From IMG/VR virus record IMGVR_UViG_3300023213_000432, positions 160,001-224,000 of that record: DNA of 64,000 bases. The stretch is one strand, 5' to 3'. The position numbers and the translations under genes were made by a program. The DNA is from a virus. Lineage: Duplodnaviria; Caudoviricetes. Position 1 is the stretch's first letter, and every line of letters begins with the position of its first letter. Below, in pieces: positions 4,318 to 42,549 of this stretch. A model generated the notes under the pieces. That model searched no databases. It saw only the letters and a program-made list of their open reading frames with translations, and was not told the DNA's origin.

Positions 4318-4650
4318 ATGTTTAAATTCTTTGAATGGAAATATCTAGGTTATGATCCAAAAACAGATCAGTATCGATCCGAAATCACTATCGTGGATGA
4401 TGATTTTACCGAAACCCTCGTCGCCGCCTCCCCAATCGGCGGCGAAGCCGTTGTTCCACCCGCCACCACCGCCTTAATCGATATTTATTCTCGAAGAAAT
4501 CTCAATGTGGCTGGTAATCTCGTGTTGTTGATGCAAGATATAGAAAGTAAATGGCTAGACATTAAACTACAAATCGAATATTATCAAAAATATATTCCTG
4601 AATATTCAAAATATCACGATCAAGTAATGGGTTATCTAATATTCACATGA
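4318..4650 (+). CDS. dispersed repeat-family protein, copy 1 (DDDF...RRNLNVAGNL...KYHDQV family)
   Basis: Aligns by eye with seven other ORFs in the window; GC-rich variable core at 4408-4473. Confidence 0.85.
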   Translation: MFKFFEWKYLGYDPKTDQYRSEITIVDDDFTETLVAASPIGGEAVVPPATTALIDIYSRRNLNVAGNLVLLMQDIESKWLDIKLQIEYYQKYIPEYSKYHDQVMGYLIFT

Positions 4651-5162
4651 GTCTGCAAGATAAAAAACGCCTCAAGCGGATTAAAAATGACGTCATTGAG
4701 CGAGATGGAATGATTTGTTGCTACTGCGATACTGTATTGACACTCGAAACATTAACACTTGATCATATCGTTCCTGATAGCAAACGAGGAACTTTCAATT
4801 CCACTAATTTGACAGTTTCTTGTAAAACCTGCAATAATAATCGCGGGAACAAGCCATTCTTTGAATATTGTAAAAAATTCAAATTTTCCGAAGATAAAAT
4901 TAATAAGTATAAGCGACTGTATTTTAATAACCTTAAAATCAAAGTATTGAATATTGCTAAGGAAGAATGTTTAAAGAGTGATTGTGCCATTCCTAAAAAA
5001 TTGATTAATAAAGCTTGCCAGATTTTGAAAATCAAACCTATCTCGTTTGCAAATTATGAGAAGGAATACCCATTGAATATTGATTTTTCCACTTCATGTC
5101 GGAGACGGGAAATTAAATTTTGTTTTGAGCAATTAATAAGGATTATAGAAGTGGATACGTAG
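4647..5162 (+). CDS. HNH endonuclease
   Basis: CCYC...TLDHIVPDSKRG...NLTVSCKTCNNNRG. Confidence 0.9.
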   Translation: MSLQDKKRLKRIKNDVIERDGMICCYCDTVLTLETLTLDHIVPDSKRGTFNSTNLTVSCKTCNNNRGNKPFFEYCKKFKFSEDKINKYKRLYFNNLKIKVLNIAKEECLKSDCAIPKKLINKACQILKIKPISFANYEKEYPLNIDFSTSCRRREIKFCFEQLIRIIEVDT

Positions 5163-5170
5163 GAGAGAAA

Positions 5171-5714
5171 ATGGATATTAAACCTTTAAGAGATCATGTT
5201 GTCGTAGTGAACTACCTTTGCCTAAGGGCAAAAGCTTCGCGTTTCATTGACCTAATACTACTAGCGCCTCACCGCGTTTTTGTTTAATGTCCGACTATAT
5301 TCCGTAACCAGACAGGTTTTCATTACGCTATTATGACTTGGTTTTCGTCAATCTTAGCTTAATGTTATATATCACCATATGCGTACTTTTGTTAAAATAT
5401 TTTTGAGAAAACGCATTCATCTCTCGCCTAAAGGCGAGAGTCTTCTGCTATCAATCATGATAAAAGATGCTGCCCCCGATAAAATAGCGGGAGGATTATT
5501 ATATAAGCCCGATATTGTGGAGGAAGAATTTATTACCGGAACTGTGGTGGCTATTGGTTCTGGTAAAATTGCTGCAGACGGTTCTACCGTTCATTTGGAA
5601 ATATCCATTGGTGACAAGATTGTTTTCAATAGACATGCACCAGTTAAATTGAAAATCAAAGATCAAGACTATTTAGTTCTGCGCGAAGATCAGGTATTGT
5701 GCATTTTGCCATGA
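5171..5714 (+). pseudogene. groES: co-chaperonin GroES split by a 253-bp insertion
   Basis: 5171-5206 encodes MDIKPLRDHVVV and 5460-5714 encodes IKDAAPDKIAGGLLYKPD...GTVVAIGSG...GDKIVF...VLREDQVLCIL; joining them gives a 96-aa GroES with canonical spacing. Confidence 0.88.
5207..5459 (-). mobile_element. non-autonomous IS605/TnpB-derived mini-element (left end, internal fragment, right end with reRNA scaffold)
   Basis: Reverse complement matches the left end (cagaagactctcg...gatgaatgcgttttct), an internal tnpB fragment (ttgacgaaaaccaagtcat) and the right end (cggacattaaacaaaaacgcggtgaggcgc...gaaacgcgaagc...TTCAC) of the elements at 31260 and 40545; preceded by TTTAT on the minus strand. Confidence 0.9.
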
Positions 5715-5726
5715 TATAGTTAAGTA

Positions 5727-6677
5727 ATGGAGTTTAGTATGGATTATACATTAGATGTTGTTAGTTCTCATCCTGAGCATCAGGGTAAGACCTTTCGCAA
5801 ATACATAGTAGAGGGTATTGAAACTGTGGGAGTCGCCTATGATGAAAAATTTGAAATTCGTTTTACCAATCATACTTGGCAAAAAGTGCAAGTTAAGATC
5901 ACTTTGGATGGAATCGATGTTTTAACAGGAGAGTTAGCTACTATTGAGCCTACCAAGGATATGTGGGTGGTGCAACCTTATGGAATTTTATCGATTAAAG
6001 CTTGGCCGGAAACAGATCAAGGCGGGGCAGGTTTTGTTTTTACTCATGCCGGTAATAGTGTCGCCGTTCATACTCAAAGCGATTTGACGCATCGAGGAAT
6101 TATTGCAGCTGCGGTTTATGTAGAAGGACATATGGAACCGTTGAAGTTGAACCCTTGGGTACCCTTGGGTACTTCGCCTTATGTGTTGTATACTGGGAAT
6201 AAAATTACTTGGGTTGTTCCTAACACTTGGGTTGTTCCTAACACTTGGACATATTCTAACACTTCGACGTATCCTAACACTTTTACTATTCAAGCGCAAA
6301 ATGCTGCAAGTCTTGCATTTGGTGGTTATGGTGGTGGGGGCAATTGTTCTGCCTCTTTTTCTTGCACTGCGAATGTTCCCAATCCAACTAGCACGCAGGA
6401 TCAACAAAGCTTACCAGCGGTAGGTGCTGGACAATACACTGCGCAACAAATTACTTATTCTGCTGGATTAGTCAAACCAATGTTTTCTCAGATTATTCGA
6501 GTGAGATACCTTTGGTGGTCAGATTTGGCTAACAAGCTGGTTAATCCAACGGCAACCTCATCGCATCCATCAGGATTTCCTTCGGATACCAACGAACGAA
6601 TTAATCTTGGAGCTACTCCTATAATTGGTGAGTCTGATATGGTTACACTTTATTCTCAACCTTTTACTCGTTTTTGA
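5727..6677 (+). CDS. conserved hypothetical protein
   Basis: 316-aa ORF with ITLDGIDVLTG and GIIAAAVYVE motifs and a low-complexity Thr/Ser/Gly central region. Confidence 0.7.
   Translation: MEFSMDYTLDVVSSHPEHQGKTFRKYIVEGIETVGVAYDEKFEIRFTNHTWQKVQVKITLDGIDVLTGELATIEPTKDMWVVQPYGILSIKAWPETDQGGAGFVFTHAGNSVAVHTQSDLTHRGIIAAAVYVEGHMEPLKLNPWVPLGTSPYVLYTGNKITWVVPNTWVVPNTWTYSNTSTYPNTFTIQAQNAASLAFGGYGGGGNCSASFSCTANVPNPTSTQDQQSLPAVGAGQYTAQQITYSAGLVKPMFSQIIRVRYLWWSDLANKLVNPTATSSHPSGFPSDTNERINLGATPIIGESDMVTLYSQPFTRF
6207..6248 (+). repeat. in-frame 18-bp tandem repeat (2.3 copies)
   Basis: acttgggttgttcctaac x2 plus acttgg; encodes TWVVPN TWVVPN TW. Confidence 0.9.
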
Positions 6678-6705
6678 TTAATTATTTAACAAAGGAATTT
6701 TATTT

Positions 6706-6960: not shown

Positions 6961-6973
6961 ACACAATAGAACG

Positions 6974-10581: not shown

Positions 10582-10624
10582 TTAGTCGCCCAATAAAATC
10601 GCATCTTGACGATAAGAACCAAGC

Positions 10625-11920: not shown

Positions 11921-11963
11921 TTTGAACTTGACAATTGTATTTTAATAATTAGGATTAGTAGAG

Positions 11964-14875: not shown

Positions 14876-14920
14876 AATAGTCAATATTGCTCAGTGCGCT
14901 GAGACGAAATAAGAGATTTA

Positions 14921-18769: not shown

Positions 18770-18772
18770 GAT

Positions 18773-19105
18773 ATGTTTCGATCCTTTGACTGGAAATATC
18801 TGGATTATGATCCAACAACAAATCAATCTCGATACGAAATTATTTTTGTAGATGATGATTTTATCGAGACCACAATCGCTGCCTCCATTGCAGACTATGT
18901 CGTTGTCACCGTTTCCATCGCCCTAATCGATATTTACTCTCGAAGAAATCTCAATGTAGCTGGTAATCTAGTTTTGCTGATGCAATATATAGAAAATAAA
19001 CGGTCATGGGCAGATATTAAATGGCAAATCGAGGAATACCAAAAATGCATTCCAGAATATCAAAAATACCATGATCAAGTAATGGACTATCTAGTATTCA
19101 TGTGA
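18773..19105 (+). CDS. dispersed repeat-family protein, copy 2
   Basis: Conserved family motifs; variable core at 18863-18922. Confidence 0.85.
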   Translation: MFRSFDWKYLDYDPTTNQSRYEIIFVDDDFIETTIAASIADYVVVTVSIALIDIYSRRNLNVAGNLVLLMQYIENKRSWADIKWQIEEYQKCIPEYQKYHDQVMDYLVFM

Positions 19106-19117: not shown

Positions 19118-19453
19118 ATGTTTCAATCTTTTGATTGGAGATATCTGGGTTATAATCTAAAAACAAATCAATCTCAATACGAAACTACTTTCGTAGATGA
19201 TGATTTTATCGAAACAGTCGTCGTTTCCTTCATCAGCACCATCAATGACGGATCTTCCCTCGCCGCTGTTCTGATTGATATTTACTCTCAAAGAAATCTC
19301 AATGTAGCGGGCAATCTTGTGTTGTTAATGCAATATATAGAAAATAAATGGCCATGGATAGATATTAAGTGGCAAATCGAGCGTTATCAAAAAGAAGTTC
19401 CTGAATACCAGAAATACCACGATCAAGTAATGGATTATCTAATATTCATGTAG
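19118..19453 (+). CDS. dispersed repeat-family protein, copy 3 (tandem with copy 2)
   Basis: Conserved family motifs; variable core at 19208-19270. Confidence 0.85.
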   Translation: MFQSFDWRYLGYNLKTNQSQYETTFVDDDFIETVVVSFISTINDGSSLAAVLIDIYSQRNLNVAGNLVLLMQYIENKWPWIDIKWQIERYQKEVPEYQKYHDQVMDYLIFM

Positions 19454-19505
19454 AAGTTGTTATATTGCTCGGTACGCCGAGACGGTTAAAACAGAGGTTG
19501 ATAAA

Positions 19506-26264: not shown

Positions 26265-27398
26265 ATGACTCAACCCAATCACAAAAACATGACTGTTTCC
26301 GATTTCAATTTGGTTAAACTAAACACCAAACAATTATCGGAACATATTGCAGCCACTATTCAAGGCGGCGGAAACATCGCCATTTTTGGCAAGCGTGGCA
26401 CCGGCAAAACAGAAATTTCTAAACAAGAGATTAAAAACGCTGGGCTTCAAGAAGTTTATATTAACCTCTCAGTTTTGGAAAGAACAGATTTAGCCGGATT
26501 TCCTCGGGTGTTATGTGCTGATCAGACAGAGAAATACGTGGAATATTTGCTTCCCCAGTTTTACAAGCCATTAATTGAGGGCAATAAAGAAGCGGTAGTT
26601 GTTTTTGATGAAGTAGATAAAGCTGATCCTAGCATTTGGGCACCCTTGTTAGAATTTACTCAATTCAAAAGTATTAATCAGCGATCTCTTCCCAATCTCA
26701 AATCTATTATTATGACGGGCAACTTAATTTCCGAAGGCGGCTCTCGTCCTAGTTTGCCACTATTGGATCGCAGTGAAAAATATTTAGTGGAAGCGGATGC
26801 TACTCTTTGGTTAGATTGGGCTGCCAAAGTTGGGCATATTCACCCTGCCATTCGAGCTTATATTTCTGACAATAATTTGGATTTGCATGGTGTTGCTGAC
26901 CCGGAAGATCGTTATGCCGATCCTTCTCCTCGTGGTTGGACAAATGCTTCCAAGATCTTGCAAAAAGGTGAAGAACAGGGCTGGAATACTGCTCTTCTTA
27001 AGCAAAAAGTTCATGGATGTGTTGGAAAAGCTGCTGGTATTAAATATGACATTTACTATGAGCATTATCAACAACTCTTGCCGATGATTGATGATTTGTT
27101 TCGAGGAAAGGACATTTTGGATCAGTATGAGAAAATGGAACCATCTAAAAAGATGGTGGCTTGTATGATTGCTTGCACTCGACTAGCTAATCAATTAGAT
27201 CTTGCTACGCCAGAGCAACCGCCGCCTACCATTTCCATCATTGGAAAGTTTTTACAACATGTTTCTTATGAAAATGCTTATATTGCGATTCGGGGCTCCA
27301 TTCAATTAGAACGATTTATTAAGTTCAAATTAGATATTCATCCAGATTGGAAAGAACATGTTAAGGAGCTTAAAGATCGAATCAAAGTTAGAATTTGA
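26265..27398 (+). CDS. MoxR-like AAA+ ATPase
   Basis: GKRGTGKT Walker A, VVFDEVDKA Walker B, MTGN, LLDR, PSPRGW. Confidence 0.88.
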   Translation: MTQPNHKNMTVSDFNLVKLNTKQLSEHIAATIQGGGNIAIFGKRGTGKTEISKQEIKNAGLQEVYINLSVLERTDLAGFPRVLCADQTEKYVEYLLPQFYKPLIEGNKEAVVVFDEVDKADPSIWAPLLEFTQFKSINQRSLPNLKSIIMTGNLISEGGSRPSLPLLDRSEKYLVEADATLWLDWAAKVGHIHPAIRAYISDNNLDLHGVADPEDRYADPSPRGWTNASKILQKGEEQGWNTALLKQKVHGCVGKAAGIKYDIYYEHYQQLLPMIDDLFRGKDILDQYEKMEPSKKMVACMIACTRLANQLDLATPEQPPPTISIIGKFLQHVSYENAYIAIRGSIQLERFIKFKLDIHPDWKEHVKELKDRIKVRI

Positions 27399-27401
27399 AA
27401 A

Positions 27402-27692
27402 ATGTTTCGATCTTATAGTTTGAAACCTCTAGATTACGGATACGAAATCACCATCGTGGATGATGATTTTACTGAATCTGCCTTCGCCATGAACGTGCCC
27501 TCCGTCACTGCCCTGATTAATATTTACTCTCGAAGAAATCTTAATGTGTCTGGCAATTTAGCTTTACTAATACGATATGGAGAATATAAACACTCATGGG
27601 ATATAAAAAGGCAAATTAAATGGTTTCAAGCATATGTTCCTGAATACCAGAAATACCATGATCAAGTAATAGACTATCTAATATTTTTGTGA
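27402..27692 (+). CDS. dispersed repeat-family protein, copy 4 (between MoxR and VWA genes)
   Basis: Conserved family motifs; shorter N-terminus; variable core at 27471-27512. Confidence 0.85.
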   Translation: MFRSYSLKPLDYGYEITIVDDDFTESAFAMNVPSVTALINIYSRRNLNVSGNLALLIRYGEYKHSWDIKRQIKWFQAYVPEYQKYHDQVIDYLIFL

Positions 27693-27773
27693 AGATTGTT
27701 ATATTAATTAAAAAGAAAGGAAAGGGCAAAATCCTACTGCAAACAAGAGCACAGGTCTTTTTGCCTATGAATC

Positions 27774-29315
27774 ATGAAATTTTCTCGTGTAATTGGAAAA
27801 ATTGATCCCAAGCTGATAGAACAAGCTGAAAGAAAATTATCAGAAGTGTTTTTGGAATTAGGAACACGATATGACAATATGGTAGTAGGAAGCGGATTAG
27901 GAGGAGATCCATTTGTCTTCACCCTTCTCTATCCAGTGCAACACATAGCTACTCTTAATATTCCAACTGCCGCCACTGATGGTATTAGATATTATTGGAA
28001 TCCCAAGTTCGTTATTAAACGTTCTAAAATTGGTTTGCGAATTGTTTCGGCTCACGAAGCTTTTCATGCCAACTACATGCATCCCCAAAGACGAGGTTCT
28101 CGATTGCCCAAATTGTGGAATATCGCCATTGATTATATTGTTAATGGAATTATCATGGAAGATTTACAATTCCGTGAGCCGAAAACCAAATTAAATCCCG
28201 AGGACACTTTCATCAAGCATTTGGGAAGATTTATGACTTTGACCCAATATGCGGAATACATCAAGGATCCTTTTGCTAAGATCAAAGGGTTCGATGATTT
28301 GGTTCCTGCAGAGAACGAAAATGGAGTCGAATTACCAGCGCCCGGAGAGGATCGAGAATTAACGCCTCAAGAAACCCGAGAACTAGAAAGAAGAGAAAAA
28401 TCGGTCAAATTTTATTTCGCGGATCCCAACTTAAGCGAGGAGATGAAAAAACCAGAACGAATTTACGATCACCTTTATAATTTGTTGCCCAAGTGTCCCA
28501 AGTGTGGTCAAGTAGGTATTTATCCTAATCCCAACAAGAACAAAAATAAAGCCGATCATAAAGATCACGACCATAAAGATAATAAAAAATGTGATCATGA
28601 AGGGGGTATTGATATTTTTGGATTGGGCGGTTCCACCATGGATGAACACATGGATACCGAAGAAAGCGAGGAAAAGTTAGCTAAACGATTATCTGATGCT
28701 ATGGAAACTTCCAAAAAGATGGCTGGTAAAATTCCCGCAGCTTTGGAAGAAGAGTTGGGAAAATTAATTGCTCCCAAGATCGCTTGGAAAGATGTGATTC
28801 GTGGAAGGATATTAAAATCTAGGGCTGGTAATGAACGTAATGATTGGACGCGATTTCGAACTCGTCCCATGTTTTTTGGTTTATTGGTACCTAAAAGAAA
28901 AGGTTATGTAGCTAGATTTGGTTGTTTGTTAGATACAAGCGGATCGATGAGCAAGGATGATTTAGTTTTTGGGATATCTCAACTTCAAGGACTAGATGAA
29001 AGAAATGAAGGCATTATTGTTCCTGCTGATGCTCAGTGTTATTGGGATCGAGCCACCAAGATTAGAGCTTGTAATGCGGAAGAGTTGAGTAAAGTAAAGA
29101 TAGTAGGAAAAGGTGGTACAATGTTCGGAAACTTTTTCTCTGATTATGAAAAACAAATTGGGCGAGTAGATTTTCTAATTTGTATAACCGACGGATTTTT
29201 GATGGATACCGATATTGCGGCGATGGTGCAACCTAAAGTGCCAGTGTATTGGATTTTGACCAGTAATTCTACTTTCAAGGCGCCCTTTGGAAAAGTATTT
29301 CAGTTAAGGGATTGA
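27774..29315 (+). CDS. DUF2201-like metallopeptidase plus VWA domain protein (MoxR partner)
   Basis: PTAATDG, AHEAFH (HExxH), WNIAIDY, LLDTSGSMS MIDAS, GGT, ITDG. Confidence 0.88.
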   Translation: MKFSRVIGKIDPKLIEQAERKLSEVFLELGTRYDNMVVGSGLGGDPFVFTLLYPVQHIATLNIPTAATDGIRYYWNPKFVIKRSKIGLRIVSAHEAFHANYMHPQRRGSRLPKLWNIAIDYIVNGIIMEDLQFREPKTKLNPEDTFIKHLGRFMTLTQYAEYIKDPFAKIKGFDDLVPAENENGVELPAPGEDRELTPQETRELERREKSVKFYFADPNLSEEMKKPERIYDHLYNLLPKCPKCGQVGIYPNPNKNKNKADHKDHDHKDNKKCDHEGGIDIFGLGGSTMDEHMDTEESEEKLAKRLSDAMETSKKMAGKIPAALEEELGKLIAPKIAWKDVIRGRILKSRAGNERNDWTRFRTRPMFFGLLVPKRKGYVARFGCLLDTSGSMSKDDLVFGISQLQGLDERNEGIIVPADAQCYWDRATKIRACNAEELSKVKIVGKGGTMFGNFFSDYEKQIGRVDFLICITDGFLMDTDIAAMVQPKVPVYWILTSNSTFKAPFGKVFQLRD

Positions 29316-29316
29316 T

Positions 29317-29505
29317 ATGTTGCAGGGAATAATAAATGCTATCGCGAGTTTTGAAAGAGAAACTGGAACTAAGCCAGCTGGATTAGTTTTGACTAAACAT
29401 CAATTTGATTGTTTACTGTCTGAACTGGTCTCAAAATGTGTTAAGTTTGAGAGCGGAAGCGATCCATATTGCGGTATTGTTTTGTATGGAACAAGGATCG
29501 AGTAG
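29317..29505 (+). CDS. hypothetical protein
   Basis: 62-aa ORF immediately after the VWA gene. Confidence 0.45.
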   Translation: MLQGIINAIASFERETGTKPAGLVLTKHQFDCLLSELVSKCVKFESGSDPYCGIVLYGTRIE

Positions 29506-29591
29506 ATTAACGAAAATACTAATGAACTTTGAGAAAGAAAAAATAATTTATCAATTGTGTTCCAAATATACCAATAATATATCATTTTAAT

Positions 29592-30506
29592 ATGGTTAAG
29601 TTTTCCAATGAATTTTTGCTTCCTCATGTCCTAACAAATATTCAACATCAAGTTTTAGTAGGATCACTATTGGGTGATGGATCATTAGAATTGCCTGGCA
29701 AATTTCCACGAATGAAGATTGGTCGTCAAATCAAAGATCATTTGTATTTGGAATGGGAATATAGTCTTTTTCAAGATTTATGCAAGAGTGGCATCAAAAC
29801 AATATGTCGATATGATAGCAGATACAATAAAGCATATAAGCATGTATATTTTCAGACACGAGCGGTGCCGGCATTTTTGAATTATTATCACCAATGGTAT
29901 CCTAATGGAAAAAAGACAGTCCCCAAAGATTTGAAATTAACGTCCCTTATATTGGCAGTATGGTTTGCCGACGATGGCTGTATTATTCGCAAAAATAATC
30001 ATTTAACACTCAAAATAGCGACAGACGGATTTGGATTTGAAGGCGCCAATAGATTATCCCAAAAATTAGAGCAAAGATATAGTTGCAAATTTCCAATCTA
30101 TCAAAAACAAAAAAATAAAGATTTGTGGTTTATAAAAACATCAACGCGTGCCGCCCAACCATTTATTAAAGATATCGCTCCACATATTGAGCAGATGGGC
30201 ATGAGCAGGAAATCTGACTTATGGAAGAGTTTTGATCTCAACACAATTCCTATCGCTGGCAGAATGCCTAATAAGGAAGCAGAAAAACAATTATACAAAG
30301 CAATTTTAAAACTACAGGATTTTTCAGTCAATAAATTAGTTAGTTTAGCAGACCAATATGATATTAATACATTACGCTCATATTTAAATGATTTTATTAA
30401 AGACGGCTATTTAATTAGATATGAAGGTTCAGAAAAATGGAATTTATATCATTACAAAATGACTAATACGGGAAAAAATTTTTTCCGAGAGGTAGCTAGA
30501 AAATGA
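29592..30506 (+). CDS. LAGLIDADG homing endonuclease (free-standing)
   Basis: GSLLGDGSL and LAVWFADDG; homologous to 23361..24371. Confidence 0.9.
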   Translation: MVKFSNEFLLPHVLTNIQHQVLVGSLLGDGSLELPGKFPRMKIGRQIKDHLYLEWEYSLFQDLCKSGIKTICRYDSRYNKAYKHVYFQTRAVPAFLNYYHQWYPNGKKTVPKDLKLTSLILAVWFADDGCIIRKNNHLTLKIATDGFGFEGANRLSQKLEQRYSCKFPIYQKQKNKDLWFIKTSTRAAQPFIKDIAPHIEQMGMSRKSDLWKSFDLNTIPIAGRMPNKEAEKQLYKAILKLQDFSVNKLVSLADQYDINTLRSYLNDFIKDGYLIRYEGSEKWNLYHYKMTNTGKNFFREVARK

Positions 30507-30583
30507 GTTTGATAGGATTAGTGGCGCTATCGATAGTGTTAGTGGTTGGACTATATGGAAATATGTTAAAGGATAAAGAATAA

Positions 30584-30922
30584 ATGTTTCGATCTTACGA
30601 TTATAAATATCTTGGATTTAACAATAAAACAGATCAATGGCGATATGAAATTACTATCATGGATGACAACTTTACTGAAACTGCTGTTGCCGCCGCCGTC
30701 GCGGACGTTGGCGACAATGACGCTACGCGCATCGCCGCTGTCCTTATCGATATTTATTCTCGAAGAAATCTCAATGTGGCCGGTAATCTAGTTCTGCTGA
30801 TGCAATATATAGAAAATAAATGGTCACGTGATATTAAAAGGCAAATTGAATTGTATCAGGAACATATTATAGAATATCAGAAATATCATGATCAGGTAAT
30901 GGGTTACTTGGTATTTATATGA
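30584..30922 (+). CDS. dispersed repeat-family protein, copy 5
   Basis: Conserved family motifs; variable core at 30674-30742. Confidence 0.85.
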   Translation: MFRSYDYKYLGFNNKTDQWRYEITIMDDNFTETAVAAAVADVGDNDATRIAAVLIDIYSRRNLNVAGNLVLLMQYIENKWSRDIKRQIELYQEHIIEYQKYHDQVMGYLVFI

Positions 30923-30929
30923 GGACAAA

Positions 30930-31253
30930 ATGATTATCATTACGGAAAAAGCAGTCGCCAAATTAAAAGAATTTTCTAAAAGTGAAGGAATTGGGCACTT
31001 GTGTGTCCGATTGAAGGTAGTATCTGGCGGCTGTGCCGGACTGAGTAGAGATATGTTCTTCGAAGATTTCGTTGATGAGACGGATGAAGTAATGGAGATA
31101 GATGGTATCAAAATCATCGTTGATCCCATTTCTTATCAGTTTTTAGAAAATACTTCTATCGATTATCAAGAAACTCAGTTTCAAAGTGGGTTTAGGTTTT
31201 CTGCCCCTGAAACCAAGATGAGTTGTGGGTGCGGAAAGAGTTTTTCGGTGTAA
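30930..31253 (+). CDS. iscA: IscA/HesB A-type Fe-S carrier protein
   Basis: RLKVVSGGCAG, IDYQET...GF, CGCGKSF. Confidence 0.9.
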   Translation: MIIITEKAVAKLKEFSKSEGIGHLCVRLKVVSGGCAGLSRDMFFEDFVDETDEVMEIDGIKIIVDPISYQFLENTSIDYQETQFQSGFRFSAPETKMSCGCGKSFSV

Positions 31254-31259
31254 TTTTAT

Positions 31260-32573
31260 CCTGATAATATCAGAAAATTCTCGTCTTAAGTAACATATGA
31301 ATGCGTCTTTTAGAAAAGACATAGAAAAATAATCTCATTACAAAAACTTTACATAACGCAAGATATAATTATACGTGATGCAAAAAGCCTTCAAATTCCG
31401 TTTCTATCCAACCGAAGCTCAGAAAGACTTCCTCTCTCAACAATTCGGAGCGGTTCGTTTCATCTATAATTTCTTCCTTGCTCATCGAAAAGACGAATAT
31501 CTCAATAATAAGAAAAGTTTAACTTATTACGATGATGCTAAGGGTTTAACCGAACTCAAATCCAAAAATGGCTATGAATGGCTTTACGATATTAACAGTC
31601 AAACGTTGCAAGCATCTCTTCGTAATTTAGAAGTAGCTTATACTAGCTTTTTCAAAAAGCGAACCAAATTCCCTCGCTTTCATTCTAAAAAGAATAGACA
31701 ATCCATTAAAATACCGCAAAACTTCAAGATCGAAAACAACCGGCTCTTTATTCCCAAACTCAAGGATGGAATCAAAATTAACCAACATCAACCACTCGCT
31801 GGTAAAATAACTTGCTGTTTTATCTCTAAAACACCATCCGATAAATATTATGTTTCTATCTTATGCGAGACGGATACCGTTCAGTTAAAAAAGAACGATA
31901 ACGTCATCGGTATTGATTTGGGTAGCAAATATCTAGTAGTTTCTTCCGATAAAAACAAGATAGACAATCCCAAGTTCTATCGTAAATTAGAAAAGAAACT
32001 CATTTTTGAACAACGACAACTCTCCCATAAACAAAAAGGTTCTAACAATAAAAACAAACAAAGAAAGGTAGTCGCAAAAATACACGAACGAATAGCCAAC
32101 AGCAGAAATGATTTTCTTCATAAACTGACAAAACAACTAATTGACGAAAACCAAGTCATTATAGCAGAAACTCTGTCAGTTAAAAACATGATGAAAAATC
32201 ACTGCTTGGCGAAGTCAATCTCGGATGCTAGCTGGGGAGAACTGGTAAGACAGTTAGAATATAAATCTAAATGGTATGGAAGAACTTTCCATCAAATAGA
32301 TAAATTCTTCCCATCCAGTAAAACCTGTCATAATTGTCAGTTTGTATTAAATGATCTGCCATTATCGATCAGAGAATGGGATTGTCCAAGTTGCAAACAG
32401 CATCATGATCGAGATATAAATGCTTCTCTTAATATAAGAGATAAGGGCATGATAGATTTAAACTTGTCTGGTTGTGGGATACAATCGGACATTAAACAAA
32501 AACGCGGTGAGGCGCCAATGTTAATTGGGTCAATGAAACGCGAAGCTTTTGCCTTAAGGCAAGAGTAATTCAC
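31260..32573 (+). mobile_element. IS605-family TnpB-only element
   Basis: Preceded by TTTAT (31255-31259); left-end hairpin region; right end ...gcaagagtaaTTCAC; near-identical to the element at 40545. Confidence 0.85.
31375..32568 (+). CDS. tnpB: TnpB RNA-guided endonuclease (intact RuvC)
   Basis: HTH_OrfB start KAFKFRFYPT, GIDLG, IAETL, FFPSSKTC, CxxC, HDRDINA. Confidence 0.95.
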   Translation: MMQKAFKFRFYPTEAQKDFLSQQFGAVRFIYNFFLAHRKDEYLNNKKSLTYYDDAKGLTELKSKNGYEWLYDINSQTLQASLRNLEVAYTSFFKKRTKFPRFHSKKNRQSIKIPQNFKIENNRLFIPKLKDGIKINQHQPLAGKITCCFISKTPSDKYYVSILCETDTVQLKKNDNVIGIDLGSKYLVVSSDKNKIDNPKFYRKLEKKLIFEQRQLSHKQKGSNNKNKQRKVVAKIHERIANSRNDFLHKLTKQLIDENQVIIAETLSVKNMMKNHCLAKSISDASWGELVRQLEYKSKWYGRTFHQIDKFFPSSKTCHNCQFVLNDLPLSIREWDCPSCKQHHDRDINASLNIRDKGMIDLNLSGCGIQSDIKQKRGEAPMLIGSMKREAFALRQE

Positions 32574-32722
32574 CAGCATATTCGATTACTTTTTTTTTCG
32601 TATAACCATTGGCAATTTTTGATTTCCACTTCCTATCAAACCAGATGTAGCTTTTTTGGACAAACTCTGTATAGAATTAGTAAAGCGTTCCTTATTCGCT
32701 TAAATTTTTGGCATTCCATTAA

Positions 32723-33055
32723 ATGACTAATATCCAATTAACACCAGCCGCTCTTGACCAAATCAAAAAACAAATTGCTCTTCGTGGAACGCCTGACGTT
32801 TATCTGCGATTAGGAATTAAGGGTGGTGATTGTGCTGGGTTTTCCTATGTCCTTTCATACGAGGACAAAGAGCCTAAAGAGCGAGATATTTCTTTCCAGA
32901 TTGATGGCATCAAAGTAATCATTGACAAGAAAAGCATTCTTTATTTAGAAGGCGTCACACTTGACTGGAAATCATCTTTAATGGAACAAGGTTTCTTTTT
33001 TATCAATCCACATGAAAAAAGCCGCTGTTCCTGCGGTAAATCATTTTCTGTTTAG
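32723..33055 (+). CDS. iscA: IscA/HesB A-type Fe-S carrier protein, second paralog
   Basis: LRLGIKGGDCAG, LEGVTLDW, CSCGKSF. Confidence 0.9.
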   Translation: MTNIQLTPAALDQIKKQIALRGTPDVYLRLGIKGGDCAGFSYVLSYEDKEPKERDISFQIDGIKVIIDKKSILYLEGVTLDWKSSLMEQGFFFINPHEKSRCSCGKSFSV

Positions 33056-33091
33056 CATGTTATATATCTCCATGATCCTTCAAAGGAAATC

Positions 33092-34195
33092 ATGGGGAAC
33101 GCCCTCAATCTACAAGAAATAAATCAAGAAGAAGCGCTTAATCTTACAAAGTTCTACATACAATCCAATCAAAATTGTTTCTTTTTTGGACGTCGTGGAA
33201 CAGGAAAGACTGAAATTAGTATTCAAGCCGCCAAAGAATGCGGGTATCGAGTAAATTATATTAATCTATCAGTTTTAGAGCGCAGCGATCTCTTAGGAAT
33301 GCCGTCGTTATTTGACAAAAGCGAAGTGGTTAATTACAAGTCTCCTGTTTTTTTACCTTCGTTAAGTAAAGATGAAAAACCGAACACTGTGCTTGTGTTT
33401 GATGAAATTGACAAGTGCTATCATGATCTTACCGCCCCTTTGTTAGAGGTGTTGCAGTTTCGACGAATAAATGATCGCCCGCTTAATGTGGTCTCTTGTA
33501 TTCTTACTGGCAATCTCCCTAATGAGGAAACATTAAGTTCTCAAATATCCACAGCTGTTTTGGATCGAGGTGCTAAATATATTCTCTCTTTCAATTTAGA
33601 AAAGTGGTTAGAATGGGCTAAAGCTCACAATGTGCATGATCTTATCTTGGGATTTTTGAGTAAGCATCCTGATTTGGCTTGTGGTGAGCCAGATGATGTT
33701 AATTATGCTTCTCCATCTCCTCGTGGCTGGACGTTGGCCTCTCATGCTATCATCAAAGCTAGGATATTGAAGATCGTAGATATTAAGACTATCACTCAAA
33801 TAATTGCTGGTTTTGTTGGTCATAATGCGGCGGCATTGTTCGAAATTTGGTATTCTTGTTTTAGAAAATTTGACCCTTATGTGGTAAATTTGATTGAAGC
33901 AGGTAAGATGACTTTGGACTTTTCTCTTTTGGAACCTACAGAGAAAATTGTTTTTGTTATTGCAGTTTGCCTTCATACTAAACTAAAAACGTTGGAAGCT
34001 AAAACTAAAAATAAATTTCTTTTTTTAGAAAACTTATGTAAGTTTTATGCAGGATACCCCATTGATCCTGAAACTAAGTTAATGGGATTGAATAATGCTT
34101 TTACTTTCGAGATGATTGCGGCTCAGAAATGGTATGCTTGCAAGCCGTTTTTTGAATTGTTTAGTCAGATTGTTCAAGGAACAACTATAAAATGA
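33092..34195 (+). CDS. MoxR-like AAA+ ATPase, second paralog
   Basis: GRRGTGKT, VFDEIDK, LTGN, VLDR, PSPRGW. Confidence 0.85.
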   Translation: MGNALNLQEINQEEALNLTKFYIQSNQNCFFFGRRGTGKTEISIQAAKECGYRVNYINLSVLERSDLLGMPSLFDKSEVVNYKSPVFLPSLSKDEKPNTVLVFDEIDKCYHDLTAPLLEVLQFRRINDRPLNVVSCILTGNLPNEETLSSQISTAVLDRGAKYILSFNLEKWLEWAKAHNVHDLILGFLSKHPDLACGEPDDVNYASPSPRGWTLASHAIIKARILKIVDIKTITQIIAGFVGHNAAALFEIWYSCFRKFDPYVVNLIEAGKMTLDFSLLEPTEKIVFVIAVCLHTKLKTLEAKTKNKFLFLENLCKFYAGYPIDPETKLMGLNNAFTFEMIAAQKWYACKPFFELFSQIVQGTTIK

Positions 34196-34245
34196 GAACT
34201 TGACAACTAATTTTTTGGAATTACACTATTGGGAATGAGGTAAAA

Positions 34246-34569
34246 ATGAGCGAGTTGAAGATGATTGATGATGAGAATTTTGATAGCGAAGTATTAAAAT
34301 CGGAAGTGCCAGTATTGATAGATTTTGGGGCAACATGGTGCCCTCCTTGTAAAGCGCAACTTCCTATTCTAGAAGAGTTCGCCGCTTCTCATCAAGAAGA
34401 AATTAAGGTAGTCAAGATTGATATCGATGATAGTCCCCGTTCAACATCGAGGTTTGGCATTCGTTCCATTCCTGCATTGATGTTGTTCAATAAAGGACAC
34501 CGAATAGATACCAAGGTGGGGCTGACATCATTGGCCGGATTGACTGAGATGTTAAAAAAAGTTGGTTGA
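34246..34569 (+). CDS. trxA: thioredoxin
   Basis: DFGATWCPPCK, FGIRSIPAL. Confidence 0.92.
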   Translation: MSELKMIDDENFDSEVLKSEVPVLIDFGATWCPPCKAQLPILEEFAASHQEEIKVVKIDIDDSPRSTSRFGIRSIPALMLFNKGHRIDTKVGLTSLAGLTEMLKKVG

Positions 34570-35500
34570 TTTGAAAATGTTGAAAGTTATTATGCTAGTG
34601 GGTGCTCCTGCATCTGGAAAATCCACATGGGCTAAGCAGGAAATTGCCAAAGATCCGCTCAATTGGTGTCGGATTTCTAATGATGATTTACGAAATATGT
34701 GTAACGGATATGTTTTTTCTGCCGGATATGAGAAGTTTATCACCGATATCCGCAATCATCTTTTACGAGAAGCGCTGCACCGAAATATGAATGTTATTTT
34801 GGACAATGTCAATTCCAACAATAAACACTGGGAAACGACTTGTAAAATCGCGGTGGAGTCCCATAAGAACGTACAGGTGTTTGAAAAACATTTCTTTGAG
34901 GAACTAGATGTGTTGTTGGAGCGCAATGCTAAACGAGAAGGATCAGCTCGAGTTCCCGATGAAGCAGTAAAACGATTTTTCAAGGAATTGGGCGGAACAC
35001 AATTTAAGTTTTCCAATTCAAAAAATGAAACTTTTTTCAAACGGAACCAAGAAGTTGTAGATGCTCCTGTTTGGAATGATTCTCTTTCCACAGCTATAAT
35101 TTCAGATTTGGACGGAACACTTGCACTAATACACAATCGTAACCCATATGATGCTTCTGATTGTGACATTAAAGATTTACCGAATACGCCAGTAGTAAAA
35201 TCTGTTCAGCTTTATCATGACGCTGGATACAAAATAGTATTCTGTTCAGGACGTGAGGATAAATTTGAGCCTGAAACTCGACGTTTCATAGATAAACATT
35301 TGCCTAATATTACATATGAGCTTCATATGCGTAAGACGGGTGATTTCAGAAAAGATGCTATTATCAAAGAAGAAATTTATCGCAATAATATTGAAGGAAA
35401 ATATAATGTGATATTAATTTTGGATGATCGCGGACAAGTGGTTTCCTTATGGAGGTCACTAGGATTAACTTGTTTTCAGGTTGCTCCTGGAGAATTTTGA
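34562..35500 (+). CDS. polynucleotide 5'-kinase/3'-phosphatase (T4 PseT/Pnkp-like)
   Basis: GAPASGKST kinase P-loop, then HAD phosphatase motifs DLDGT, SGR, K and LDDR. Confidence 0.9.
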   Translation: MVDLKMLKVIMLVGAPASGKSTWAKQEIAKDPLNWCRISNDDLRNMCNGYVFSAGYEKFITDIRNHLLREALHRNMNVILDNVNSNNKHWETTCKIAVESHKNVQVFEKHFFEELDVLLERNAKREGSARVPDEAVKRFFKELGGTQFKFSNSKNETFFKRNQEVVDAPVWNDSLSTAIISDLDGTLALIHNRNPYDASDCDIKDLPNTPVVKSVQLYHDAGYKIVFCSGREDKFEPETRRFIDKHLPNITYELHMRKTGDFRKDAIIKEEIYRNNIEGKYNVILILDDRGQVVSLWRSLGLTCFQVAPGEF

Positions 35501-35534
35501 TCAAAAAATTTAGAAACTTTCTGGAATCATAGTA

Positions 35535-36269
35535 ATGAACCAAATCTTTAATCAAGACTGTCTCGATATGAACGTTAGCGATCTATCTTTGGTGTATTTG
35601 GATCCGCCTTATGCCTCTGTTAGCGAAGATCGTTATTATGGCATTGGAAAAGATATCAACGAATATCTTGATTACATGGAAGCAAGGCTCACCAAAATTT
35701 TCTCTTTTATGGACAAGAAAGCCTCCAATATTCTTCTTCATGCTGATTTTAAGTGTGTTCATTATCTTAAAGTTAGGGCAGATGCTATTTTTGGTAGGAA
35801 CAATTTCCAGAACGAGATTATCTGGTGTTATACTAATCCAAGCAGTGTCAAAGCTCATCTTCCAAGAAAGCACGATAATATTTTGTGGTATGGTATCGGA
35901 GACTATGCTTTCAATCAAGAGTTTGTTCCATATACCGGTAATTTGCGAGTAGGTGGGAAAACTTCTTGGAATTCAGATGTCAAACTAGAAAATTACCTAG
36001 ATAAGGGGAAAAAACTAGAAGATTATTGGACGGATATCCCGGCGTTATGTCGTAATGAAAGCGAGAAGCTTGGATATCCCACGCAAAAACCAATCAAGTT
36101 AATGGAACGAATTATTAAAATGTTTTCTAATAAGGGAGATTTAGTGTGCGATCCTTTCTGCGGGAGTGGAAGTTTTTTGGAAGCAGCTAGACTATTGGAA
36201 CGAAATTTTGTGGGTTATGATATTTCTTTGCAGGCATGTGAGATAGTCAAAAAAAGATTGGGTATATGA
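35535..36269 (+). CDS. DNA methyltransferase (N4/N6, beta class)
   Basis: YLDPPY, YPTQKP, DPFCGSGS. Confidence 0.92.
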   Translation: MNQIFNQDCLDMNVSDLSLVYLDPPYASVSEDRYYGIGKDINEYLDYMEARLTKIFSFMDKKASNILLHADFKCVHYLKVRADAIFGRNNFQNEIIWCYTNPSSVKAHLPRKHDNILWYGIGDYAFNQEFVPYTGNLRVGGKTSWNSDVKLENYLDKGKKLEDYWTDIPALCRNESEKLGYPTQKPIKLMERIIKMFSNKGDLVCDPFCGSGSFLEAARLLERNFVGYDISLQACEIVKKRLGI

Positions 36270-36508
36270 TTTTTGCGATCGGTATTTTGTTAGCTTTATT
36301 AATTATTTACTTTCTGTTTATTAGAGGAATATTGTGGAAAGGAATTGTTGGAGCTTTTGCTTTTTATGGAATGCGATTATTTTTGCTGACTTATTTTCCT
36401 AGCAGCCACAATATTTGTATGATAACGGTGGGACATAATTTCATGTGGGCCGAGATTGTTCCGTTGGTGGTATTGTTAATGGCTGCTATATGTTCGAGAG
36501 ATAAGTAA
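36266..36508 (+). CDS. hypothetical membrane protein
   Basis: Three hydrophobic segments. Confidence 0.6.
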   Translation: MIFAIGILLALLIIYFLFIRGILWKGIVGAFAFYGMRLFLLTYFPSSHNICMITVGHNFMWAEIVPLVVLLMAAICSRDK

Positions 36509-36826
36509 ATGTTTAAATCTTTTAACTTTAAATATTTAGATCATGATTCAAAGAAAGCTAAGTATCGATACGAAATCATTATTGTGGATGATGATTTTAC
36601 CGAAGTCGCCGACGCGCTCGTTTGTGGTCGTCCCACTGCCGACGCCGCCGCCGCATTAATCACTATTTATTCTCGAAGAAATCTCAACGTAGCTGGTAAT
36701 TTAGCGTTGTTTATGCAATTTACAGAACATGAATGGTCATGGCGAAGTATTGAATGGCATCAAAAAGAAATTCCAGAATACCCAAAATACCACGATCAAG
36801 TAATAGGCTATCTAGCATTTATGTAA
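36509..36826 (+). CDS. dispersed repeat-family protein, copy 6
   Basis: Conserved family motifs; variable core at 36599-36655. Confidence 0.85.
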   Translation: MFKSFNFKYLDHDSKKAKYRYEIIIVDDDFTEVADALVCGRPTADAAAALITIYSRRNLNVAGNLALFMQFTEHEWSWRSIEWHQKEIPEYPKYHDQVIGYLAFM

Positions 36827-36830
36827 AAAT

Positions 36831-37034
36831 ATGAAATATAATCAATTAATGAATGAAAGCGGATTTTTAACTCCACAAGGTAAGAAATGGATAGATGATA
36901 AGATTTTGCCCAGCATCATCGAGATTCTTGATGACATGGAGACAGAAAATCAAATGCGAATTGTAGGTGGCGCTTTGTCCAAACAAATTGGGGATCTAAT
37001 TGCAAATAAGTTGGTGGAACGAAAATTTACGTAA
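36831..37034 (+). CDS. hypothetical protein
   Basis: 67-aa collinear ORF. Confidence 0.55.
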   Translation: MKYNQLMNESGFLTPQGKKWIDDKILPSIIEILDDMETENQMRIVGGALSKQIGDLIANKLVERKFT

Positions 37035-37058
37035 AATTAAAACAATCTAAAGTGCCCG

Positions 37059-38270: not shown

Positions 38271-38285
38271 TATAGAATATAATAG

Positions 38286-38750: not shown

Positions 38751-38819
38751 TTTTCTAGTCATACTAGTTTTGAAAGCCAAGCGTTTATACCCTTGACTTT
38801 TGTCGATATATAGTTTGTA

Positions 38820-40112: not shown

Positions 40113-40183
40113 TTGTTAAAAGATGCTTAATTATGGTGGTGAGACCAACAGCCGGAAATTATTGAACAAAAGGGAGGAATGTC

Positions 40184-40212
40184 TTGACACGCGTCTGTTG
40201 GATGTCCATAAT
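40184..40212 (+). promoter_or_regulatory. sigma70-like promoter
   Basis: TTGACA-N17-CATAAT. Confidence 0.6.
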
Positions 40213-40247
40213 AGTGTATATTGATATATCAACAAAGGAATTAACTG

Positions 40248-40475
40248 ATGTTGCGACGTTTCCACTTTGAAAGGGGTAAAGATGTGTCAGGTATTAGCGG
40301 AATTGGAATTGTGGCAGAAGGCGTGTTATTAACCGATACTAAAGAGTGTGTAGTGCATTGGTTGGGAAAGCGCGCTTGCATTAATATCTATCATTCCTTG
40401 GAAGATGTTATTTTTGTCCATGGACATGAAGGAAGTACCCAAATTGTTTGGGACGATCCAGAAGAGAAGAATTGA
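40248..40475 (+). CDS. conserved phage hypothetical protein
   Basis: RRFHFERGKDVSGISGIGIVAEGV...HGHEGSTQIVW. Confidence 0.7.
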   Translation: MLRRFHFERGKDVSGISGIGIVAEGVLLTDTKECVVHWLGKRACINIYHSLEDVIFVHGHEGSTQIVWDDPEEKN

Positions 40476-40544
40476 AAAAAGATAAATTAAGAACGATTGT
40501 AGTCGGAGATTTACATTGTTGTCTTGTAGAATTTGAAGAGTTAT
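40472..40544 (+). pseudogene. N-terminal remnant of a metallophosphatase truncated at the TnpB insertion
   Basis: TTG start overlapping the upstream stop reads MKKDKLRTIVVGDLHCCLVEFEEL (GDxH motif) up to the element left end; no continuation after the right end. Confidence 0.55.
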
Positions 40545-41859
40545 CTAAATTAAGCAGAAAACTCTCGTTTTCAAGCGAAAGATGAATGCGTTTTCTAGAA
40601 AAGACACACAAAAATAATCTCATTAACAAAAAATATTCATAACGTAAGATATAATTATACGTGATACAAAAAGCTTTCAAATTCCGTCTCTATCCAACTG
40701 GACAGCAAAAAGACTTTCTATCTCAACAATTCGGAGCAGTTCGTTTTGTCTATAATTTCTTCCTTGTCCATCGAAGGGACGAATACTTCAACAATAAGAA
40801 AAGCTTAACTTATTACGACGATGCTAAGAGTCTAACCGAACTAAAATCCAAAAACGGCTATGAATGGCTTTACGATATTAATAGTCAAACTTTGCAAGCC
40901 TCATTAAGAAATCTTGAAGTGGCATATACTAGCTTTTTCAAAAAACGAACCAAATTCCCTCGCTTTCATTCCAAAAAGAATAGACAGTGCATCAAAATAC
41001 CTCAGAATTTCAAGATCGAAAACAACCGCCTTTTTATTCCCAAACTCAAAGATGGGATTAAGATCAATCAGCATCAATCGCTCACCGGCAAACCCATCTG
41101 CTGTTTCATTTCTAAAACGCCATCAGATAAATATTATGTTTCTATCTTATGCGAGACGAATGTCACTCAGTTAAAAAAGAACGATAACGTTATCGGTATT
41201 GATTTAGGCAGTAAGCATATTGTCGTTTCCTCAAATGGATCTAAAATAGAAAACCCCAAGTTCTATCGCAAATTAGAAAAGAAACTCGCTTTTGAGCAGA
41301 AACAACTCTCCCATAAACAAAAAGGTTCTAACAATAAAAATAAACAAAGAAAGGTAGTAGCAAGAATACACGAACGAATAGCTAATAGCAGAAATGATTT
41401 TCTTCACAAACTGACAAAACAACTAATTGACGAAAACCAAGTCATTATAGCGGAAACCCTGTCAGTTAAAAACATGATGAAAAATCATTGTTTGGCGAAA
41501 AGCATATCTGATGCTAGCTGGAGCGAACTGTTAAGACAGTTAGAATATAAGTCTAAATGGTATGGGAGAACTTTTTATCAAATAGATAAGTTTTTTCCAA
41601 GTAGCAAAACCTGTAATAGTTGTCAGTTCGTACTAGATGATCTACCATTATCGATCAGAGAATGGGATTGTCCAAGTTGCAAACAGCATCATGATCGAGA
41701 TATAAATGCCGCCCTCAATATAAGAGATAAAGGCATGATAGATTTAAACTTGTCTGGCTTCGGAATGCAGCCGGACATTAAACAAAAACGCGGTGAGGCG
41801 CTAGTATTAACTAGGTCAATGAAACGCGAAGCTCTTGCTTTCAAGCAAGAGTAATTCAC
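40545..41859 (+). mobile_element. IS605-family TnpB-only element
   Basis: Preceded by TTAT (40541-40544); same ends as the element at 31260; right end TTCAC at 41859. Confidence 0.85.
40661..41854 (+). CDS. tnpB: TnpB RNA-guided endonuclease (intact RuvC)
   Basis: Same length and motifs as 31375..32568 (GIDLG, IAETL, HDRDINA). Confidence 0.95.
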   Translation: MIQKAFKFRLYPTGQQKDFLSQQFGAVRFVYNFFLVHRRDEYFNNKKSLTYYDDAKSLTELKSKNGYEWLYDINSQTLQASLRNLEVAYTSFFKKRTKFPRFHSKKNRQCIKIPQNFKIENNRLFIPKLKDGIKINQHQSLTGKPICCFISKTPSDKYYVSILCETNVTQLKKNDNVIGIDLGSKHIVVSSNGSKIENPKFYRKLEKKLAFEQKQLSHKQKGSNNKNKQRKVVARIHERIANSRNDFLHKLTKQLIDENQVIIAETLSVKNMMKNHCLAKSISDASWSELLRQLEYKSKWYGRTFYQIDKFFPSSKTCNSCQFVLDDLPLSIREWDCPSCKQHHDRDINAALNIRDKGMIDLNLSGFGMQPDIKQKRGEALVLTRSMKREALAFKQE

Positions 41860-41880
41860 CAGGCAAAGTGTGTTGTATAG

Positions 41881-42213
41881 ATGTTTCGATCCTGCGAATG
41901 GAAATATATAGGGTATGATGACAACGTAAATCTATGACGATACGAAATAATTATCGTGGATGATGATTTTACTGAAACCGCCGTCTCTGACAACGGCGAT
42001 CCTTACTCCATGGTCGGCGCTGCCTCCGCCCTGATCGATATTTACTCTCGAAGAAATCTCAATGTAGCTGGCAATCTAGTGTTGTTGATGCAATATATAG
42101 AAAATAAATGGTCATGGCAAGATATTAAATGTCAAATTAGATGGTATCAGAAATACATTCCTGAATATCAGAAATGCCACGATCAAGTGATGGACTATCT
42201 GGTATTTATGTGA
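41881..42213 (+). pseudogene. dispersed repeat-family copy 7 with premature TGA at codon 19
   Basis: ATG 41881 reads MFRSCEWKYIGYDDNVNL*RYEIIIVDDDF...; TGA at 41935-41937 lies where copy 5 has TGG. Confidence 0.8.
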
Positions 42214-42222
42214 AAAAGTAAA

Positions 42223-42549
42223 ATGTTTCAATCTTGCGCGCTTAAATATTTAAGCTATTCTCCACAAACAAATTGGAAGCGATACACAATTACCATTGTA
42301 GATGATACCTTTACTGAAACCGTTAGTTGTTATGCTGCTGGAGAAGCTTATGCTGTCGTTTCCGTTCTAATTAATATTTATTCTCAAAAAAATCTCAATG
42401 TAGCTAGTAATTTAGCCTTACTAATGCAACATTTGGAGCGTAAATGGGCATCAATTAATATTAAATGGCAAATAGAGTATTATCAAAAATACGTTCCCGG
42501 ATATCAGAAATACCACGATCAAGTAATGGAATATTTAGTATTTTTGTGA
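42223..42549 (+). CDS. dispersed repeat-family protein, copy 8 (tandem with copy 7)
   Basis: Conserved family motifs; variable core at 42313-42366 uses mostly NNT codons. Confidence 0.85.
   Translation: MFQSCALKYLSYSPQTNWKRYTITIVDDTFTETVSCYAAGEAYAVVSVLINIYSQKNLNVASNLALLMQHLERKWASINIKWQIEYYQKYVPGYQKYHDQVMEYLVFL

Follow-up and report, generated by a model that had tools for sequence, protein, structure and literature searches.

An old, dispersed family of about 110-residue genes in a huge phage, probably evolving in concert by gene conversion

Free-standing homing endonuclease genes, such as the seg and mob genes of T4, are found in large phages as single open reading frames (ORFs) between conserved genes, present in some relatives and absent from others. 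Paralogue families are also known from giant phages and viruses, as exemplified by the head paralogues of phiKZ and SPN3US and the gene 'accordions' of poxviruses. T4-type phages carry PeSL-flanked ORFan cassettes, which move when short repeats recombine with each other (Arbiol et al. 2010, PMC2839356; Comeau et al. 2014, PMC4122927). The MPME1 and MPME2 elements of mycobacteriophages have inverted-repeat ends, bring in an extra 6 bp when they insert and do not differ between phages (PMC3029335). Interlocus gene conversion and the resulting concerted evolution of multigene families have been defined in PMC2720389, and prokaryotic cases are described in PMC6053082. The present work deals with a family of about 110-residue genes dispersed over a 64,000-nt stretch of DNA (the window), bases 160001–224000 of the 327,423-bp IMG/VR virus contig IMGVR_UViG_3300023213_000432 (Duplodnaviria; Caudoviricetes), estimated to be 76% complete and called G000 below.

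A preliminary description of the window, made from the sequence alone, had listed eight + strand copies of the gene, one of them (copy 41881; copies are named by their first base) with a nonsense codon. All eight ORFs and the nonsense codon were confirmed, and the copies align over their full length with 56–70% amino acid identity to the first one. A protein profile search and nhmmer, the search of the whole genome that had been recommended, raised the total for G000 to 16 full copies and a 5′ fragment of 64 nt. Each of them lies on the + strand; together they form four tandem sets and eight singletons (12 loci), and the family is the largest group of paralogues in G000. The reading that we prefer, with a probability of about 0.6, is that of an old multigene family in which sites are gained and lost slowly, copies duplicate in tandem and gene conversion makes the sequences evolve in concert; its members are not jumping now. 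The family is old and sits at long-held sites, gain and loss at gene boundaries are rare, tandem duplication has occurred and copies have exchanged sequence with each other.

Four related IMG/VR contigs carry the family, in each case with co-oriented copies: G003 (406 kb, 95% complete) with 19, G002 (157 kb) with 13, G004 (120 kb) with 8 and G001 (IMGVR_UViG_3300023212_000464, 118 kb) with 2. Orthologues of G000 and G003 are 40–55% identical, and the two genomes have no family site in common. Nearer relatives, whose flanking genes are 55–75% identical to those of G000, are represented by contigs L109 and L110 (from one JGI sample, relative A), L111, L113 and L114, and in these three of the four comparable sites are already occupied. 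The junction of copy 36509 is occupied in L109, L111, L113 and L114 and empty in G003 and G004, and that of copy 30584 is occupied in L109 and not in L111. The third is the junction of genome copy 243754, which sits between Mre11-like and Rad50-like genes (genome 242563–246341); it is occupied in L110 with an identical 5′ junction (...KEKPVE-stop/ATG), and in G003 and G004 it is empty, the Mre11-like and Rad50-like orthologues overlapping by ATGA. Since these junctions are common to the nearer relatives, the sites must be old and their gain and loss slow. The preliminary description had named the presence of the same copies at the same loci in relatives as a refutation of its proposal, and the three occupied sites go part of the way towards this.

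Other junctions are empty or differently filled. The site of copy 27402, between an AAA ATPase gene and its partner DUF2201/VWA gene (window 26265–29315), is empty in L109 (1518–4193), where an 18-nt spacer separates the two genes, and holds a TnpB element in G003 (303254–308215); this AAA/DUF2201 junction is an insertion hot spot. The site of copies 41881 and 42223 holds other genes in L111, and that of G001 copy 17163 is empty in G003. Conversely, a four-copy array lies between the deaminase and aminotransferase genes of both G003 and G002, whose G000 orthologues overlap by 40 nt. Within the close trio of G002, G003 and G004 most copies keep their position, with clean cases of presence and absence and with changes in tandem copy number. 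The proposal that an ATG-to-stop unit is copied to new sites is therefore sustained with respect to the unit, which is the ORF, to the use of different junctions in each lineage and to the existence of empty sites, and is amended with respect to its tempo, the copying being slow and long past.

G001 was also considered in the search for empty counterparts of the window sites and was rejected, as its sequence represents another, complementary portion of the genome. It is syntenic with G003 at 56–118 kb, a region missing from G000, and its GC content is the same as that of G000. Its TnpB is 95.5% identical to a G000 TnpB and both of its family copies branch within the G000 clade. G001 probably supplies the rest of the same phage or comes from a very similar sister phage.

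The phylogenetic tree joined the 16 G000 copies and the two G001 copies in one clade (100/99), with the copies of the nearer relatives as its sister. Approximately unbiased (AU) tests rejected clades of same-site copies (p 5e-5, 2e-10 and 5e-5), and two of these tests gave the same rejection when rerun without the variable columns. Over the conserved core, the three shared-site copies of G000 are 64–73% identical in amino acids and 75–78% in nucleotides to their 15 in-genome paralogues, versus 42–54% and 54–58% to the same-site copy in the relatives. The synonymous difference is likewise 0.52 within G000 versus 0.80 to the relatives, those of equal GC content included. An artefact of base composition was ruled out as the cause of the grouping by genome, since the equal-GC relatives gave the same result. 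Such grouping in spite of shared sites is the textbook signature of interlocus gene conversion.

Recombination between paralogues is seen directly in relative A. Copy L109_5146 is ~97% identical to L110_105, which occupies a different site, over a stretch that begins 5 nt ahead of the ATG and reaches approximately codon 93; its last ~50 nt switch to a ~95% match with L109_10001. Besides the exchange between sites seen in this chimeric copy of relative A, the greater closeness of in-genome paralogues than of orthologous-site copies, also at synonymous sites, is shared with described concerted multigene families. The present family differs from these in that it belongs to a virus, consists of 16–18 dispersed single-ORF copies of ~330 bp in unrelated operons, and was homogenised long ago (dS, the synonymous divergence, is about 1) and not in an ongoing manner.

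Clustering by genome would also be expected if each lineage had expanded the family independently, with parallel insertion into a few permissive junctions and no need for gene conversion. Junctions such as AAA/DUF2201, which take different inserts in different phages, and the lack of significant conversion tracts inside G000 are in line with this explanation. We regard it as quite unlikely, since three of the four sites open to comparison agree although there are ~500 junctions, not one nucleotide differs in the 5′ junction at the Mre11-like gene, and the chimera of relative A is direct evidence of recombination between paralogues.

Several points nevertheless weigh against the old, concertedly evolving family that we favour. 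The nearer relatives are represented by short contigs only, so that the comparison with them extends to just four of the 12 G000 sites. Within G000 no recent conversion tract was significant (best pair p 5e-4, global p 0.09); the case for homogenisation there therefore comes from the trees, and the homogenisation is old. Permissive junctions may have received independent insertions more than once, a mechanism of targeted insertion would agree with the precise stop/ATG junctions and the clean empty sites as well, and the process that creates new sites remains putative, being proposed by analogy.

The age of the copies was estimated from their divergence. Pairwise nucleotide identity among the G000 copies is 62–79%, with no pair above 79%; mean dS is 1.03, and the ratio of nonsynonymous to synonymous divergence (dN/dS) is 0.30 overall and 0.17 in the C-terminal core. 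The copies are constrained and not recent. These values bear out the constraint at the protein level that had been suspected, whereas the nucleotide similarity, previously called high, is moderate, and the copying previously called recent is not.

Tandem sets indicate how some of the copies arose. The 12-nt spacer between copies 18773 and 19118, gaaagaagtaaa, is similar to the spacers of two other tandem sets. The like spacers of these three sets would suit tandem pairs that are copies of one two-gene cassette, but in the tree the first members do not pair with first members, nor the second with second. Behind genome copies 147770 and 148118 the same spacer precedes a third unit, the fragment at genome 148480, a 13-codon 5′ piece that ends just before an AlkB-like 2OG-Fe(II) oxygenase gene.

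The similarity between copies extends from ATG to stop only, and nucleotide hidden Markov model (HMM) matches cover model positions 1–333. BLASTN of the 400-nt flanks of the 12 loci detected nothing above chance (best E 0.011 for 14 nt), no terminal inverted repeats recurred between copies when the ends of four copies were compared, and no transposase is associated with the G000 copies; the absence of a conserved flank and of inverted repeats reported before was thus confirmed. Conserved subterminal hairpin ends of IS200/IS605 cargo or PATE-like type were not found, the flanks being unconserved. A moron would bring its own promoter and terminator; in a consensus scan, promoter-like sites occurred at chance level with none bracketing the copies, although the consensus may not correspond to the promoter type of the host. 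Every copy points the same way as most genes on its own contig. Their tight packing was also verified, the ATG lying 0–3 nt from the upstream stop at five of the 12 loci, versus 12.7% of all G000 ORFs (p 0.012), and the stop of copy 4318 overlapping the ATG of an HNH endonuclease gene (4647–5162).

Comparison with the described mobile units follows from these boundaries. As in PeSL cassettes, gene-sized insertion, deletion or replacement takes place between conserved genes of large lytic phages, and mini-circles could come out of the tandem repeats as well. PeSL cassettes consist of unrelated genes, enclosed by a repeated promoter and stem-loop, whereas here the gene itself is repeated, its flanks are unconserved and a hairpin stands beside only three of the 12 loci. 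Like MPME1 and MPME2 (PMC3029335), the unit measures a few hundred bp, contains one small ORF and occupies varied sites in related phages, but it has no inverted repeats and its copies are 62–79% identical. The family lacks the features that define MPMEs and PeSL cassettes, and a nuclease domain that would support its reading as a homing gene was not found either.

The latter reading deserves attention in its own right: the gene might be a self-mobile, ORF-sized selfish element of homing type, whose product cuts or marks empty junctions so that repair copies the ORF in. The clean presence or absence between conserved, translationally coupled gene pairs, the enrichment of stop/ATG junctions over the genome background, the 8–19 copies per related genome, the HNH, LAGLIDADG and TnpB genes beside some copies, the filling of the AAA/DUF2201 junction by a family copy here and by TnpB in G003, and the purifying selection on the protein are all compatible with it. 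On the other hand, the protein matched no nuclease or recombinase, either by family or by fold; searches of Pfam, PHROG and NCBIfam with up to 81 members gave no match to the nuclease domains GIY-YIG, HNH, LAGLIDADG, PD-(D/E)xK and EDxHD, and a set of 81 diverse members has no more than two invariant residues. In addition to the age of the copies, their sites are stable across relatives, with dissimilar same-site copies, when elements spread by homing would be similar. Selfish-gene neighbours occur at three of the 12 loci, which is not significant by a rough estimate; TnpB directly adjoins one family locus only and is ~450 nt from a second. Free-standing homing genes resemble the family as single ORFs between conserved genes that are present or absent among relatives, and homing genes (HNH, LAGLIDADG) are abundant in G000 too, but the family lacks a nuclease motif or fold, has many paralogues per genome and does not show its greatest similarity between same-site copies of different phages. 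A homing-like element is consequently held to be unlikely. We are equally doubtful of a new type of ORF-sized selfish element, spreading by a conversion-like copy-and-paste at stop/start junctions by means of a small protein of unrecognised fold, which would have to work without inverted repeats, transposase or known nuclease.

An RNA intermediate had been put forward earlier, the copies being retro-copies of mRNA, and such an origin would suit promoter-less copies with an ORF-sized unit. It appears extremely unlikely: no reverse transcriptase (RVT_1) was detected in the five related contigs G000–G004, phage messages are polycistronic, so that an ATG-to-stop copy is unexpected, the age of the copies does not fit, and spacers common to several tandem sets suggest duplication at the DNA level. 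The likeness among the copies, and with it much of their recent look, is better accounted for by conversion between resident copies than by ongoing transposition.

Under the preferred reading of an old family evolving in concert, a promoter-less ORF in sense orientation inside an operon would be expressed by read-through transcription and by translational coupling or termination-reinitiation, which is probable because the ATG often abuts the upstream stop. New sites would be rare, created when a copy inserts ectopically at a gene boundary or is duplicated in tandem, and would then persist for long. By analogy with the mini-circles proposed for PeSL cassettes (PMC2839356), they may come from illegitimate reintegration of one-unit circles released by tandem sets. 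Resident copies would recombine by interlocus gene conversion, which would keep the copies of one genome alike, and since homology is confined to the ORF, conversion would also account for a similarity that ends exactly at the ATG and the stop.

Every copy contains a variable core of 12–24 unalignable codons between ...DDDF(T/I)E and (A)LIDIYS (Table 1). Of the core codons 59% have C at codon position 3, versus 12% of the codons elsewhere in the gene, and 86% have a pyrimidine there; the core is poor in A. The commonest bases at codon positions 1, 2 and 3 are G (55%), C (49%) and C (59%), the transition product ranking second each time, and the codon frequencies fit a model of independent positions with GCC on top. 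This NNC bias is limited to the G000/G001 clade and the nearer relatives and is absent from G002–G004. Two copies of relative A that are ~97% identical elsewhere differ in the core by an 18-nt indel and ~20% mismatches, and the core of relative A is a plain GCC/TCC/ACC repeat. The core reads as an imperfect (GCC)n poly-alanine microsatellite that would change in length by slippage and decay by GC-to-AT transitions.

An A-poor segment with C or a pyrimidine at the third codon position and well-conserved borders could also be written by a diversity-generating retroelement (DGR) or another kind of targeted hypermutation. We consider this very unlikely, given that a nucleotide HMM search found no template repeat elsewhere in G000 and that G000–G004 lack the reverse transcriptase required. 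Neither the variation in core length, nor the pattern of decay from GCC at all three codon positions, nor the plain repeat with its 18-nt indel in the relative agrees with a DGR target. As a separate observation, G000 encodes a tRNA-Ala(AGC) (genome 147116–147189), ~580 nt upstream of the family locus at genome 147770, and a tRNA-Thr(GGU) (genome 223942–224014, window 63942–64014), which are predicted to decode GCC and ACC, the prevailing codons of the variable cores.

The encoded protein was compared with known families and folds. Searches with up to 81 diverse members gave no significant match in Pfam, PHROGs, NCBIfam, PADLOC or PDB sequences. Against GenBank phages, neither megablast with 12 kb of the window nor tblastn with two family members gave a match; one scan of GTDB genomes and two of metagenome contigs with back-translated motifs confirmed no relative, and no public sequencing run was listed for window 27001–37000. 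An exhaustive profile search of metagenomes, in contrast, recovered 959 representative clusters at E ≤ 1e-3 and 387 at 1e-10, the clustering being at 50% identity; among the matches listed, nearly all are stand-alone proteins of about 85–130 residues. No fused or longer form was present among proteins of 260–2000 residues. The sole two-domain form found was P0048 (191 residues, on a 196-kb JGI contig), apparently a fusion of two tandem copies. By these searches the family is a new, previously undescribed one that is widespread in huge phages, and it seems to be confined to uncultured members of these.

The AlphaFold model is confident (pLDDT 94, pTM 0.86) and consists of three N-terminal strands followed by five helices. 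No fold match rose above chance in Foldseek against PDB and BFVD (E ≥ 0.05), VIA-align (Z ≤ 5.1) or the ESM Atlas (TM ≤ 0.55), so that the structure prediction and Foldseek search advised earlier led to no known fold. A partial likeness to the beta-beta-beta-alpha units of dsRBD and RNase H-like proteins is at chance level and was not taken as evidence of a nuclease. Across the 81 diverse members D27 and Y57 alone are invariant, which argues against an enzyme with a multi-residue active site; tentatively, the protein may be a small binding or accessory protein rather than an enzyme.

The copies in and near the window, their variable cores and the hairpin elements of G000 are collected in Table 1.

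Table 1. Positions of family copies, variable cores and hairpin elements in G000 (window coordinates unless marked as genome; cores lie on the + strand).
Feature	Position	Strand	Product	Variable core	Setting
Copy 4318	4318..4650	+	110 aa	4414-4473, GCC-rich, length-variable	Downstream of EF-Ts gene and a 100-aa ORF
Copy 18773	18773..19105	+	110 aa	18869-18922	Tandem pair member 1; ATG 3 nt past upstream 225-aa ORF
Copy 19118	19118..19453	+	111 aa	19214-19270	Tandem pair member 2; hairpin element 14 nt downstream
Copy 27402	27402..27692	+	96 aa	27477-27512	Between AAA ATPase gene (26265-27398) and partner DUF2201/VWA gene (27774-29315)
Copy 30584	30584..30922	+	112 aa	30680-30742	Directly upstream of Fe-S biosynthesis gene
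Copy 36509	36509..36826	+	105 aa	36605-36655	ATG abuts stop of 80-aa membrane-protein gene
Copy 41881	41881..42213	+	TGA nonsense codon	41977-42030	Tandem pair member 1; 26 nt after TnpB gene
Copy 42223	42223..42549	+	108 aa	42319-42366	Tandem pair member 2; earliest-branching copy of G000 clade
5′ fragment	genome 148480-148543	+			Third tandem unit behind copies 147770 and 148118
Hairpin element ATT-GCTCGG-TACG-CCGAG-AC	19467-19481	+			14 nt after copy 19118
Hairpin element	14889-14903	+			
Hairpin elements	genome 139022, 142454, 147252, 147712, 228916	+			
Hairpin element, weaker	genome ~120390	+			

A single in-frame TGA interrupts copy 41881, at codon 19 (window 41935–41937). The tRNA set of G000 includes two suppressor tRNAs with a CUA anticodon and no TGA suppressor, and the TGA is therefore a plain nonsense allele; the copy is probably a pseudogene or gives an N-terminally truncated product.

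The short 3′ flank common to copies 19118 and 27402 that had been pointed out before is real, and at copy 19118 it is the 5′ half of a recurrent hairpin element. The hairpin, with the consensus (A/T)ATT-GCTC(A/G)G, a UNCG-like loop and C(T/C)GAG-AC, is present seven to eight times in G000, always on the + strand and mostly in intergenic positions, the one at genome 142454 being inside a called ORF. Its stem shows a compensatory A:T to G:C change. Three hairpins lie within 100 nt of family loci, at three of the 12 loci and on one side only. The element is absent from G001–G004 and has no Rfam match; an Rfam search of the window gave tRNAs only. It may be a regulatory or processing signal.

With respect to the neighbouring genes, an EF-Ts homologue is encoded just upstream of copy 4318, at window 3103–3993 (Pfam EF_TS, E 5e-48). 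Copy 30584 has a LAGLIDADG gene just upstream and a TnpB gene 450 nt downstream, and copy 36509 precedes a 67-residue ORF and an RNA ligase gene. A gene for an NAD-dependent epimerase/dehydratase, one of six epimerase paralogues, is located on the − strand at window 42929–45052 and is split by an intein with a LAGLIDADG domain. The multicopy selfish genes of G000 comprise six TnpB, six RRXRR, six of LAGLIDADG_3 type and two LAGLIDADG_2, plus HNH, and the genome also contains a six-member family of unknown type (genome 103954, 145976, 309693 and others).

Lineage-specific duplication of a small protein family, tandem arrays included, relates these genes to the paralogue families of giant phages and viruses, from which they differ in being mostly dispersed single ORFs and in their undescribed protein family and fold. 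When a single genome is read for 'mobile cassettes', similarity that coincides exactly with an ORF, together with clustering by genome, can mimic recent transposition, and a seemingly programmed hypervariable NNC segment can be explained, as it would be here, as a decaying (GCC)n tract. The family provides a worked example of dispersed single-ORF phage paralogues that would have evolved in concert. As a large unnamed family with 8–19 copies per genome, it offers structural and functional studies of huge phages a concrete target.

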